Both the position numbers and the translations under genes were made by a program. A stretch of DNA of 64,000 nucleotides, from positions 1-64,000 of the forward strand of contig SHMW01000004.1 in the NCBI GenBank assembly GCA_008080735.1. Direction: 5' to 3'. The DNA comes from Promethearchaeota archaeon. Lineage in GTDB: Archaea > Asgardarchaeota > Lokiarchaeia > Sigyniarchaeales > SOKP01. Below are positions 13,607-17,035 of this stretch, one piece after another. The stretch's first letter is position 1. Every line of letters starts with the position of its first letter. The notes under the pieces were generated by a model. The model searched no databases. It was given only the letters and a program-made list of their open reading frames with translations, and was not told where the DNA came from.

Positions 13607-14980
13607 ATGGTTAAAATTGCGTTTATTGGAGCGGGTTCTTTGGTTTTTGGAAAAAATTTACTCACAGATCTCTTTTTGTTTCCTAGGTTAAGGAAGAATT
13701 TGGTTTTATGTTTGGAAGATATCCATCCTGAACGATTAGATTTAATATTTCGCTATGTTAAAAAGTTCAAAGAAGATTTTTTTGATGATCAGAACATATC
13801 TATTGAAAAAACCACCAATCAGAAGAAAGCTATTACAGATGCTAAATACATAATCAACGCAATCCATGTGGGTGGACTTGATGCTTTTAAACTTGATGTG
13901 GAGATACCATTTAAATATGGTGTTTCGCAAGCAGTAGGAGATACTATAGGTCCTGGTGGGGTGTTCCGTTTTTTACGTGCGACAAATGCTCTTAAATCCA
14001 TTTTGCAAGACCTCGAGGAAGTAGGACTTAATGCGACAAATAAGGGCTTAAAATCCATCCTTTTAAATTATGCTAATCCTATGGCAATGAACACATGGTA
14101 TTGCAATACACTCCTTCCCGATTCAACAATAGGGTTATGTCATGGCATCCAAAGCACGGCGAACTTACTTCGTAAATGGGCAAAATTACACCCCGAAAAT
14201 TTTAGTTTTTTTTGCGCTGGCATTAATCATATGGCATGGTTCCTTGAAGTTAGATATAGAGATCCATCAAATCCTTCCGGAATTTGGAAAGACGCATATC
14301 CATTAATTTATCAAACACTTGAAACAGAACCCAGTAAAGGAGAAGCCGAAAAGATTCGAATTGATATGATGAAATCCACGGGAGGGTATTTTATGACAGA
14401 ATCATCTAGGCATTTGAGTGAATATGTTCCATATTACCGAAAATTGCCAAATTTTAAGGAGAAGTTCCAAGGAAAACTCACTGGAGTCTTAGGACAAGCA
14501 GATGACTATTCAATGCAACTAAGACGTCAAGGGAGATTTGAAAAAAAATTAGAAAAAGCATTAAAACGACCGAAACTTTCAGCAAAAAATAGTCCATCAG
14601 ATGAATATGCGCCTCATATAATTAATGCTATGGAAGGAAATATTCCTTTTCGATTCAATGGAAATATTATGAATACAGAACAAAGCTTAATCACCAATCT
14701 TCCCAGAGATTGTTGCGTTGAAGTGCCAATCTTTGCGGATAAGCACGGGATCCACCCTCAAGGAGGGATATCCCTACCAACTGTATGCCAAGCATTGTGT
14801 ATCTCAAATATTATGGTTCAAAAAGCAGCGGTCGAAGGTGCACTTGAGTTTAATAAGGAAAAAATTTATCATGCGATATTACTAGATCCAAACAGCGCCA
14901 GTGTTTGTTCGACGACTGAGATTTATGAAATGGTGGAAGAAATGTTTGAAGCTCAAGCAAAGTGGATACCTCAATTCTAG
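13607..14980 (+). CDS. GH4 NAD-dependent glycoside hydrolase (alpha-galactosidase-like)
   Basis: KIAFIGAGS, GDTIGPGG, LLNYANPM, GLCHG, GINHMAW, TESSRHLSEYVPY. Confidence 0.9.
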   Translation: MVKIAFIGAGSLVFGKNLLTDLFLFPRLRKNLVLCLEDIHPERLDLIFRYVKKFKEDFFDDQNISIEKTTNQKKAITDAKYIINAIHVGGLDAFKLDVEIPFKYGVSQAVGDTIGPGGVFRFLRATNALKSILQDLEEVGLNATNKGLKSILLNYANPMAMNTWYCNTLLPDSTIGLCHGIQSTANLLRKWAKLHPENFSFFCAGINHMAWFLEVRYRDPSNPSGIWKDAYPLIYQTLETEPSKGEAEKIRIDMMKSTGGYFMTESSRHLSEYVPYYRKLPNFKEKFQGKLTGVLGQADDYSMQLRRQGRFEKKLEKALKRPKLSAKNSPSDEYAPHIINAMEGNIPFRFNGNIMNTEQSLITNLPRDCCVEVPIFADKHGIHPQGGISLPTVCQALCISNIMVQKAAVEGALEFNKEKIYHAILLDPNSASVCSTTEIYEMVEEMFEAQAKWIPQF

Positions 14981-15102: not shown

Positions 15103-16716
15103 TTAGACTGACTTTACTTTAACGATCTTGTTCAACCCCTTTAAAAGAGCTAAGACTGAGCTCATTACGATATCCTCGTGAGTAGCGCTGGAACGGACAA
15201 TGTTATTGGTTTCCACATCCATAAGTTCAATGGATACATGGCCAAGAGCTTCTGTTCCGCCCGTGACCGCATCGATGTTATAGTCGAGTAGTTGGATTTT
15301 GTTCATCGGTTCGAAACATTTTACTATCGCTTTAACGGACGCATCAACAGGACCAACCCCGACAGAAGATGCCGTACGGGAAGCAAAATCTCCATTATTT
15401 CTAATTTTCAATCGTACCGTCGAAGTAGGAGTGACAGAGCCTGTTAATACCGTTAACTCATCTAGGATAACGAATTGTTCTTCTTTAGGCAACTCACCCA
15501 TTACATCTTTTACGATGGCGAGGAAGTCTTCTTCACTAACTTCGTGTCCTTTATCTCCGAAACTCTTCACATGTTCAAAAATGTTCTTAAATTGATCTTC
15601 GGTTGTATATATCCCCAAATCTTCTAACTTTGCTTTCAAAGCGTGACCTCCAGAGTGCTTGCCTAATTTAATCGAGCTCCGTACAATCTGCTCAACATCA
15701 TCTGACCTTTTAATCCCGATCAATTCGGGGGTAATTGGTTCGTATGAACGAGCATTTTTAATCATAGCATGGGCATGGATTCCCGATTCATGAGCAAACG
15801 CATTTTGACCAATTAGGGGTTGAAGTCTCCCAATTTTTATTTTTCCACCACAATAGCTTTCCACTAATTTGGCAGTAGGAAAAATCAGTCGTGTATTAAT
15901 ATTCATTGGAACTTGATAGAGCGCGTAAAGGGACATAGCAGTTTCCTCAAATGAAGCATTTCCCGCGCGCTCTCCTAGTCCCATGATTGTAGTTTGTGCT
16001 TCTGAAGCGCCATTCTCGAACCCTGCGATAGTATTTGCTACAGCTAATCCAAAATCATTATGACAATGGACTGCGATTCGGATATCTTTTGGCAGGGTTT
16101 CATAATTCTTTCTTACAATATAACCAAATGCGTGTGGACTGATAGTTCCAACTGTGTCCGGAATGTTTACCCGAGTTGCGCCATGGTCTACTGCGGTTTG
16201 GTTTGCTTGTATTAAGAAATCCAAATCAGATCGAGTTGCGTCTTCGGCTGAAAATAAAACTTGATCATAATGCTCGTTTGCATACGAAACATTTTCCCGA
16301 ATGCTCTCAATTACTTCTTCTTTGCTCATGCGTAGTTTTTCTTTCATATGGAGGTCGGATGTTGCGATAAATACATGGATACTGTCCATATCAGCCTCTA
16401 TCACTTTATCGATATCTAATTTTTTCATACGGGCTAATCCCATTACTTCAGAATCTAATCCTAATTGTGCAATATCTTTACAAGCCGCAAAATCTCCTTC
16501 AGAAATGACGGGAAAACCCGCTTCAATAATGTCGATACCCAATTTATCAAGGGCTTGTGCTATTGAAAGCTTTTCTTCATGCGTAAAACTGATTCCCGGT
16601 GTCTGCTCCCCGTCCCGCAAGGTCGTATCGAAGAAATATGCCTTATCTGGAAGGTGAAGAGACTTCCGTAGCTTTCCCATCATCGTCGAAACACTTATTT
16701 CCTTTTTTTCTATCAT
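15103..16716 (-). CDS. leuA: 2-isopropylmalate synthase (citramalate synthase not excluded) with C-terminal regulatory domain
   Basis: DTTLRDGEQ, HCHNDFG, GERAGNA, AHESGIH, GKHSG, GVGPVDA; the upstream Leu-rich leader favours LeuA. Confidence 0.85.
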   Translation of the reverse strand: MIEKKEISVSTMMGKLRKSLHLPDKAYFFDTTLRDGEQTPGISFTHEEKLSIAQALDKLGIDIIEAGFPVISEGDFAACKDIAQLGLDSEVMGLARMKKLDIDKVIEADMDSIHVFIATSDLHMKEKLRMSKEEVIESIRENVSYANEHYDQVLFSAEDATRSDLDFLIQANQTAVDHGATRVNIPDTVGTISPHAFGYIVRKNYETLPKDIRIAVHCHNDFGLAVANTIAGFENGASEAQTTIMGLGERAGNASFEETAMSLYALYQVPMNINTRLIFPTAKLVESYCGGKIKIGRLQPLIGQNAFAHESGIHAHAMIKNARSYEPITPELIGIKRSDDVEQIVRSSIKLGKHSGGHALKAKLEDLGIYTTEDQFKNIFEHVKSFGDKGHEVSEEDFLAIVKDVMGELPKEEQFVILDELTVLTGSVTPTSTVRLKIRNNGDFASRTASSVGVGPVDASVKAIVKCFEPMNKIQLLDYNIDAVTGGTEALGHVSIELMDVETNNIVRSSATHEDIVMSSVLALLKGLNKIVKVKSV

Positions 16717-16807
16717 ACTAATTTACCTATTTGTGATTGTTTTATTTTATACCCCCATTATTCATAAGAGTTAAAGCCTCAGATTCTTATAGAACAATTG
16801 AGGGTTT

Positions 16808-16918
16808 TTATAATAATAAAAGTAAGCCTAACACACATAACAATAAACTTAAGGATTCTAAATGCTCCAAATTAGAATAGAGAAAACCTTTCTTTGTTAT
16901 ATTTTGAAGCATTTTCAT
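16808..16918 (-). promoter_or_regulatory. Leu-rich leader peptide (uORF) upstream of leuA
   Basis: MKMLQNITKKGFLYSNLEHLESLSLLLCVLGLLLLL*; 14 Leu in 36 aa, ending in five consecutive Leu codons, about 90 nt before leuA. Confidence 0.7.
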
Positions 16919-17035
16919 GATAAAATTCCTTTCCGTTTATAGTATATTAAATAAGAAGTCAGAATATCTTAAAAAATTTCCCGATTTTTTTTAGAAGATA
17001 TAAGATTAGCTCGGGGTTATAAATCCAATATTGAT

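Follow-up and report, generated by a model that had tools for sequence, protein, structure and literature searches.

A conserved leucine-codon leader upstream of leuA in Promethearchaeota as a candidate ribosome-read leucine sensor

A leucine-rich uORF upstream of leuA

In a stretch of 64,000 nt from a Promethearchaeota archaeon (positions 1 to 64,000 of contig SHMW01000004.1, assembly GCA_008080735.1; hereafter called the window), the minus strand carries leuA, the gene for 2-isopropylmalate synthase, and upstream of it a leader with a small upstream open reading frame (uORF) that is the subject of this study (Table 1). Leucine codons account for 10 of the last 14 codons of this uORF, 5 consecutive ones directly adjoin the stop codon, and from there it is 91 nt to the leuA start codon at 16716. 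A preliminary description made from the letters of this DNA had pointed to precisely such a 36-codon uORF about 90 nt before leuA, and all of these elements are present. The leuA product scores well above the cut-off of its NCBIfam model (NF002085, 580.8 bits; cut-off 517), and its LeuA_dimer domain is the C-terminal allosteric domain.

The host genome is AT-rich, and the preliminary description had itself named this background as a possible source of the leucine enrichment. Among all 171,604 stop-terminated open 14-codon windows in the six frames of the 4.1-Mb genome, a single one contains at least 10 leucine codons, and this is the uORF of leuA; endings of the type LLLLL plus stop occur in 14 of these windows. 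A looser scan for short open reading frames (ORFs) upstream of long ones, with at least 5 of one residue within 7 codons as its criterion, returned 128 residue-rich matches genome-wide, of which 30 were leucine-rich. A uORF that is merely leucine-rich is background in such an AT-rich genome, but the one before leuA exceeds this background, and a chance origin of its leucine density is excluded. Since TTA is the commonest leucine codon genome-wide (40%), the leader makes use of ordinary rather than rare codons.

We then compared the locus with its counterparts in 40 related genomes and a one-genome-per-species collection, which together yielded 53 distinct Promethearchaeota leuA leaders. The preliminary description had suggested looking for leucine-rich uORFs before leuA in related genomes, and they were found in this set of 53 distinct loci. 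More closely defined, an ATG-started ORF of mostly 31–41 codons that ends in LLLL(L) and a stop codon 82–132 nt before leuA is present at about 52 Promethearchaeota loci; a leucine-run uORF is missing from one locus that contains Ns, from a single locus of family 2, and from families 3 and 4, which are rich in G+C. Leucine is encoded by each of the final four codons in 47–51 of the 53 leaders, and at codons −5 and −6 the triplets TTA, CTC, CTT, and CTA are all in use. Because both leucine codon families interchange while leucine is kept, selection appears to act on decoding and not on a base motif. Outside the leucine run the peptide varies freely, and the conserved words at its N-terminus, MKMLQ and SLS, are encoded by strands of RNA helices. 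The order of parts is common to these leaders: a TATA-like box, a Shine-Dalgarno (SD) site and ATG within a 5′ hairpin, the unpaired leucine run, the stop codon, a second hairpin, an A-rich linker, another SD site, and leuA.

Table 1. Features of the leuA leader, with the isoleucine leader found in the same genome (window positions unless a locus is named; z scores are relative to shuffled sequences; cognate advantage as in the duplex test described in the text)
Feature	Position	Strand	Details
Promoter-like element	16969–16983	−	purine-rich BRE-like CGGGAAA, then TATA-like TTTTTTAA (16976–16969)
5′ hairpin domain	16843–16940	−	encloses uORF SD site and start region; −20.4 kcal/mol, z −2.80
5′ hairpin, SD helix	16931–16927 : 16855–16851	−	AAGGA : UCCUU; cognate advantage −2.4 kcal/mol
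5′ hairpin, helix H1	16913–16903 : 16871–16861	−	AAUGCUUCAAA : UUUGGAGCAUU; cognate advantage −1.8 kcal/mol
SD-like site of the uORF	16926–16934	−	GGAAAGGAA, 8–16 nt before uORF ATG
Leader-peptide uORF	16808–16918	−	36 codons plus TAA, MKMLQNITKKGFLYSNLEHLESLSLLLCVLGLLLLL; ATG 16918, TAA 16810–16808
Leucine-rich stretch (putative sensor)	16811–16852	−	last 14 codons, LSLLLCVLGLLLLL, 10 Leu; unpaired, between both hairpins
Post-stop hairpin	16751–16805	−	55 nt; −17.6 kcal/mol, z −3.26
Post-stop hairpin, outer helix P1	16805–16792 : 16763–16751	−	ACCCUCA/UUGUUC : GAAUAA/UGGGGGU; cognate advantage −3.5 kcal/mol
Post-stop hairpin, inner helix P2	16790–16785 : 16769–16764	−	AUAAGA : UCUUAU; cognate advantage −2.8 kcal/mol
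Clade-specific alternative hairpin	16777–16803	−	CCUCA : UGAGG plus inner GUUCU : AGAAU; −7.8 kcal/mol, z −3.25
A-rich unpaired linker	16717–16750	−	contains leuA SD site AGGT (16728–16725), 9–12 nt before leuA ATG
leuA, 2-isopropylmalate synthase	15103–16716	−	ATG 16716; 537 aa; Pfam HMGL-like, HCS_D2, LeuA_dimer
Ile-run uORF	150–207 of locus L116 (oriented)		gene at L116:1-1599:-

Expression signals and RNA structure of the leader

The promoter motif was recognized from a conserved box and positional k-mer profiles, as the 12 tRNA genes detected by aragorn were too few for its derivation. In 41 of 47 related leaders, a box of the TTTTTAA/TTTATAA type is found at a median distance of −58 from the uORF ATG (10th–90th percentile −73 to −55), and purines precede it in the relatives as they do here. 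The fixed position of this box suggests that transcription starts around 25–30 nt upstream of the uORF ATG, and the region with the uORF SD site must be transcribed because the helix that contains this site has a cognate advantage (see below). The genome, a metagenome-assembled genome (MAG) of 93% completeness, encodes 3 TBP genes, and a sigma-70 factor was not found in it, which places its host among the archaea. A second conserved A/T-rich motif lies at 16955–16943, about 33–38 nt before the uORF ATG and thus near the presumed transcription start; it reads TTATTTAATAT here and TTTTATAA(A/T) in relatives, and might act as an initiator, as another TATA box, or as the site of a factor.

Initiation led by SD sites is the rule in this organism, as SD words are strongly concentrated at −15 to −11 relative to start codons across the genome (701 k-mers per 5-nt bin compared to a background of around 130). 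The uORF and leuA both have an SD site at this preferred distance. Among 51 relatives, an SD-like word was seen upstream of the uORF in 32 (with start codons chosen automatically) and before leuA in 45, where AAAUAGGU forms a conserved motif. The linker from the hairpin to leuA is short (a median of 37 nt in related leaders), so that a promoter of its own for leuA would apparently not fit in between hairpin and SD site. Together with the TATA-like box at −58 and covariation at the RNA level, this lack of room suggests that uORF and leuA are part of a common transcript.

Conserved base pairing was assessed independently of any alignment by a duplex test, in which 13 windows anchored on both start codons and the stop codon were paired in all combinations and the energies of strands from the same species were compared to those of strands from different species. 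A clear cognate advantage was found for 4 pairings only, namely P1, P2, the helix between the uORF SD site and a UCCUU-type segment, and H1 (Table 1). The latter two build up the 5′ hairpin, where compensatory changes are visible among relatives; the UCCUU-type segment adjoins the 5′ end of the leucine stretch, and the partner strand in H1 is located around 40 nt downstream of the first codons.

The hairpin after the stop codon is present in 53 of 53 leaders, starting 3–7 nt past the first base of the stop codon (5 nt at this locus) and ending near +59 with a mean z score of −3.8. In the alignment to a covariance model of this hairpin (44 forward-strand rows counted, reverse-strand matches removed), canonical pairs occupy 83% of cells and compensatory double changes occur in 17 of 18 pairs, compared to 45–67% canonical cells and 4–8 pairs with double changes in slid controls with partners shifted by 1–3 columns. 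The same model has one match in the whole genome, upstream of leuA, and also recovered the hairpin in related loci. RNAalifold reported no structure on a plain MAFFT alignment of the 53 leaders, in which the strands were misaligned, but did report one on a subset of 17 sequences. A search of the 64-kb window with Rfam gave no family at the gathering score and nothing in 16717–16983 up to an E value of 10. One sub-clade (loci L066, L070–L073, L075, L078, and L080) has a Y-shaped fold in place of the post-stop hairpin, with two small hairpins enclosed by an outer CCCCUC/GGGGGG helix. The interior is thus rebuilt there, whereas this outer helix is retained at the same distance from the stop codon.

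The preliminary description had further proposed that several mutually exclusive pairings compete in this leader. All of the pairings that it named exist in the letters: CCTCA (16803–16799) with TGAGG (16781–16777), ACCCTCA (16805–16799) with TGGGGGT (16757–16751), ATAAGA with TCTTAT at the positions of P2, and the leucine-codon tract TTTTATT (16821–16815), which is complementary to AATAAAA (16746–16740). The long hairpin built from the second and third of them is conserved, but a switch between exclusive pairings is not, as the 4 helices that emerged from the duplex test do not compete with each other. The local hairpin based on CCUCA:UGAGG excludes P1/P2 and would be able to form first during transcription. 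However, this pairing between the P1 5′ strand and the P2 loop has a mean energy of −5.4 kcal/mol in the 8 closest relatives and of about 0 in the other 45 leaders. Within these 8 relatives its two sides change together (e.g., CCUU/AAGG or GCUUC/GGAGC), and there it would be compatible with P2 in the form of a pseudoknot but competes with P1. The CCUCA:UGAGG hairpin is an add-on of a small clade outside the conserved core and did not hold up as a conserved feature, and the pairing of the leucine tract with AATAAAA found no support in the duplex test. Among the related leaders, the same test gave no cognate advantage for pairings of the leucine tract and the A-rich linker, of the P1 5′ strand and the initiation region of leuA, of the UCCUU-type segment (segment X) and the P1 3′ strand, of the P2 3′ arm and the P1 3′ strand, or of the leucine run and the leuA SD site, and the 3′ strand of the post-stop hairpin had none with any window other than that of its partner.

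These folds bear on whether the leader works by classical transcription attenuation of the bacterial type, where a stalled ribosome would choose between the CCUCA:UGAGG hairpin and the long hairpin as antiterminator and terminator, in either order. Both exclusive folds are more stable than shuffled sequences (Table 1), the complementarity of P1 5′ strand and P2 loop is kept by paired changes in the 8 closest relatives, and an isoleucine leader in the same genomes (see below) has a helix that is followed by a T-run in several species. Such a mechanism nevertheless seems improbable to us, because the local pairing is absent from the 45 other leaders and its family-wide cognate advantage amounts to just −0.4 to −0.9 kcal/mol, no Rfam family matches, and U-tracts are scarce: at least 4 T within 15 nt after the hairpin occur in 6 of 53 leaders and at least 5 T in 2 of 53. 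In the window, the hairpin is followed by AUAAAAUAAAAC and hence not by a hairpin-plus-U terminator, as the preliminary description had already observed. Archaeal intrinsic termination relies on oligo-U tracts and not on hairpins, which also counts against this alternative.

The effect of ribosome position was explored by folding the leader with ribosome footprints masked. With a footprint at the stop codon, the probability that the P1 5′ strand is unpaired increases from 0.19 to 0.91, whereas footprints within the leucine run leave it at 0.19; no other change depended on where the ribosome was placed. If ribosome position instead altered access to the SD site and start codon of leuA, either through a stem between leucine run and SD site or through re-initiation across the base of the hairpin, the leader would exert translational control. 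The U-rich leucine run does pair weakly with the A-rich leuA initiation region in the global fold of the window, and the stop codon of the uORF lies at the base of a stable hairpin and is thereby within around 30 nt of the leuA SD site. Yet the unpaired probability of the initiation region is 0.58–0.67 at every ribosome position, with no masking of the SD site, and the leucine region makes 4.4 expected pairs with it compared to 5.2 when the initiation region is shuffled, in line with the missing cognate advantage. Re-initiation after a completed uORF would moreover increase leuA expression under leucine abundance, the reverse of what a biosynthetic gene calls for, and we therefore regard translational control as distinctly unlikely.

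Leaders for cognate amino acids elsewhere

The genome-wide scan for residue runs revealed a second uORF of this kind, MKHKIIPKESFIIIIGII followed by a stop codon, which has a run of isoleucine codons and is located 114 nt before a citramalate synthase gene on contig 12 (45142–47061). This gene, cimA, encodes a paralogue of LeuA (TIGR00977, 706 bits; cut-off 450), and citramalate synthase catalyzes the reaction with which isoleucine synthesis from pyruvate begins. The isoleucine uORF (consensus MKKIIP...IIIIGII and stop) is kept in 13 of 13 family relatives with upstream sequence, and downstream of it comes a conserved helix, GAAAUUUUAAAC/GUUUAAAAUUUC, after which a T-run is frequent and present in several species. 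In this leader, AUGAAA at the start can pair with UUUCAU directly past the stop codon, and the arrangement seems to resemble a classical attenuator with four segments more closely than the leucine leader does.

The preliminary description had suggested that cognate uORFs might precede further amino-acid genes, which is borne out by the isoleucine uORF before cimA and not by the histidine and tryptophan pathways: hisG (contig 49, 3828–4382, minus strand) has no uORF with histidine codons, and a gene of the TrpE/chorismate-binding family was not found in the 93%-complete MAG. Those of the other 126 residue-run matches that were checked precede unrelated genes, and uORFs with runs of histidine or arginine turned out to be chance matches located before a histidine kinase and an AMMECR1 protein, respectively. 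Leader peptides were thus seen in this genome for the branched-chain entry enzymes leuA and cimA only.

Outside the Promethearchaeota, around 17 genomes of Altiarchaeota carry a different leucine uORF, ...(S/R)GNPxLxLLLLLRLR(E/A) and stop, 107–227 nt before leuA (loci L101, L105, L108, L109, L111, L113, L153–L170, and L177). A G+C-rich hairpin overlaps the last codons and the stop codon of this uORF so that its last three codons (CUG CGA GAG) are the 5′ strand, and the Altiarchaeota leader is probably of independent origin. That a leucine run accompanies leuA in two phyla, and an isoleucine run cimA, is what a sensor that reads codons predicts, and what neither a function of the peptide nor a protein-binding site does.

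This pattern affects two alternatives. The conserved RNA could be a site for a protein or small ligand, with translation of the uORF being irrelevant and the leucine codons a by-product of a U-rich motif. The two conserved helices with their covariation would fit such a site, and the actinobacterial LEU element was interpreted in this way after mutations of its leucine codons did not fit attenuation (PMC1262725). Against it stand the exchange of TTR and CTN codon families with leucine being kept, the maintenance of ORF, ATG, and SD site, the stop codon fixed 3–7 nt before the hairpin, and the cognate uORFs before citramalate synthase and before leuA of another phylum. Besides the leucine codons there is no conserved unpaired motif between the helices, and we consider a binding site of this kind unlikely.

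Alternatively, the uORF might encode a small hydrophobic (membrane) protein with a function of its own that is co-transcribed with leuA by chance, given that its leucine-rich C-terminus is hydrophobic and of trans-membrane length and that the ORF is conserved and equipped with an SD site. We hold this to be very unlikely: the peptide is variable outside of the leucine run, its N-terminal words coincide with helix strands, and the element is found always and only before leuA (a single model match in the genome), while the isoleucine analogue before cimA and the unrelated leucine uORF of Altiarchaeota argue that codon content is what matters.

The leader as a possible leucine gauge

We consider it rather likely that the leader acts in cis and gauges leucine for leuA by means of the ribosome. 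The preliminary description had already read it as a leucine-sensing, ribosome-read leader, and this reading was upheld by the conservation of the uORF, leucine run, SD site, and flanking helices across the 53 loci. Transcription would start around 25–30 nt upstream of the uORF, and the SD site and start codon of the uORF would cease to be usable once the polymerase has made those strands of the 5′ hairpin that lie further downstream. Because this hairpin closes the start region, mainly one pioneer ribosome travelling behind the polymerase would read the uORF. With plentiful charged tRNA-Leu, this ribosome would pass the 10 leucine codons and reach the stop codon, where its footprint would keep the post-stop hairpin open; both the geometry and the folding with masked positions suggest that a stop-bound ribosome would hold the C/U-rich 5′ strand of the hairpin. 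When leucine is scarce, the ribosome would lag 15–42 nt upstream in the leucine stretch and the hairpin would fold once it has been transcribed, so that the folded or open state of the hairpin would set the expression of leuA.

The folded hairpin should favor leuA, since biosynthetic logic requires that the starved state is ON. With neither a terminator nor masking of the SD site, it is probably through a factor that the open state has its negative effect. The factor aCPSF1/FttA terminates transcription on ribosome-free RNA and is encoded in this genome (TIGR03675, 885 bits). Our preferred guess for the output step is that the folded hairpin would protect ribosome-free nascent RNA until the leuA SD site, 22 nt further on, has been loaded, whereas in an open leader around 60–90 nt of RNA would lie bare, at which aCPSF1/FttA would terminate transcription or cleave the transcript in an archaeal equivalent of polarity of the Rho type. 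We offer this shielding of the transcript from FttA as a doubtful version of the output step. Also tentative, and on balance questionable, is a more general scheme of archaeal attenuation in which a pioneer ribosome, a post-stop hairpin, and an FttA shield would serve several pathways (leuA and cimA) and would have at least two origins, one among Asgard archaea and another among Altiarchaeota.

Several points weigh against the leucine gauge or parts of it. No conserved alternative structure was found among the related leaders and neither a U-tract terminator nor masking of the leuA SD site was detected there or by footprint folding, which makes the link from ribosome position to leuA output a conjecture. 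The sign of the response, i.e., that the folded hairpin means ON, would follow from logic only. The footprint of a ribosome stalled on the last 1–2 leucine codons would reach over the hairpin base as well, which blurs both states, and the opposite wiring, with a stalled ribosome blocking an inhibitory hairpin, would fit the Altiarchaeota geometry at least as well. The alignment behind the covariation counts was fitted to, and hence leans towards, its own structure, although the alignment-free duplex test agrees with its result for the post-stop hairpin. Finally, a Streptomyces leuA leader with leucine codons did not behave as a classical attenuator when mutated, as cited in PMC1262725, so that leucine codons before leuA are as such no proof of function.

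Compared to known systems, the leader shares several traits with enterobacterial leuL (Rfam RF00512, Leu_leader) as well as with trpL, hisL, ilvL, and pheL. These include a short leader ORF with a run of codons for the end product before the cognate gene, regulatory codons beside a helix that a stop-bound ribosome would cover, a leader ribosome-binding site that can be closed by downstream RNA, and a sister leader for another amino acid, here isoleucine. It differs from them by its archaeal host with a TBP/TFB promoter and no sigma factor, by the absence of a Rho-independent terminator and of any conserved antiterminator/terminator pair in our analyses, by a leucine run that adjoins the stop codon, and by the lack of sequence or model similarity including any Rfam match. 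Because the leader has neither the terminator nor the conserved antiterminator pair that define the leuL/trpL/hisL family, and because it matched no Rfam family, we do not regard the Asgard leader as one of its members.

The actinobacterial LEU element, described upstream of leuA as a pseudoknot and base stem in which the leucine run pairs with the leuA SD site (Seliverstov et al. 2005, PMC1262725), is similar in that a leucine-codon uORF before leuA is combined with conserved RNA structure and no obvious terminator. In the leader studied here, however, a stem of leucine run and SD site is no better than with shuffled sequence, a pseudoknot-compatible pairing is confined to the 8 close relatives, the host belongs to another domain of life, and there is no sequence similarity. 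Bacterial leader peptides without terminators have been proposed to act through Rho (PMC1262725). With E. coli tnaC-tnaA and Rho-type leaders, our leader would share that a ribosome at or near the uORF stop codon gates access to downstream RNA with no need for an intrinsic terminator, and by analogy such control could conceivably be the template for an aCPSF1/FttA-dependent version. In contrast to slow decoding of leucine upstream of a biosynthetic gene as proposed here, the tnaC stall is caused by the nascent peptide and free tryptophan at the stop codon and induces a catabolic operon; an entry site for a termination factor was not identified in our leader, where a role of FttA is a guess. 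A geometric analogy may also be drawn to the ribosome shunt on the CaMV 35S leader of plant pararetroviruses, where a short ORF ends a few nt before a stable stem and the main start site follows soon after, but shunting is eukaryotic and scanning-dependent and would make leuA respond to leucine in the wrong direction.

Leader-peptide attenuation is a textbook outcome of coupled transcription and translation and is regarded as a bacterial invention. Our full-text searches of the literature returned no archaeal leader-peptide attenuator, and the papers on archaeal ribosome profiling (Ribo-seq) that we consulted mention uORFs only in general terms. The leucine leader would thus represent control of a known sort in a domain for which we found no description of it; the observation of the uORF is confirmed, and this interpretation is partly supported. 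If it is true, metabolite sensing by a reading ribosome would exist in the archaeal domain, including the Asgard archaea as the closest prokaryotic relatives of eukaryotes, and would provide a natural handle on transcription-translation coupling and factor-dependent termination in archaea. It would also explain conserved but unannotated intergenic RNA before genes of branched-chain amino-acid synthesis, and, with the customary terminator and antiterminator absent, its output step could be of a new type. Gene callers overlook such uORFs, and they could serve as markers of regulated, hence functional, leucine and isoleucine synthesis when the metabolism of uncultured Asgard archaea is reconstructed.

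In this genome leuA is monocistronic, and its downstream neighbor is a convergent gene on the plus strand (13607–14980, 457 aa). Across the whole MAG, aragorn predicted only the 12 tRNA genes mentioned above and an SSU rRNA was not found in the assembly; many tRNA genes may be interrupted, split, or simply unassembled. Upstream of leuA, beyond a gap of 319 nt with 25–27% G+C, lies a gene for a DeoR-type regulator (17812–17036). Directly 3′ of this gene, at 17013–16969 on the minus strand, a potential CCCCGA...UCGGG hairpin is followed by a run of six T that is the same T-run as in the TATA-like box of the leader, so that the terminator signal of the upstream gene and the leader promoter may overlap.

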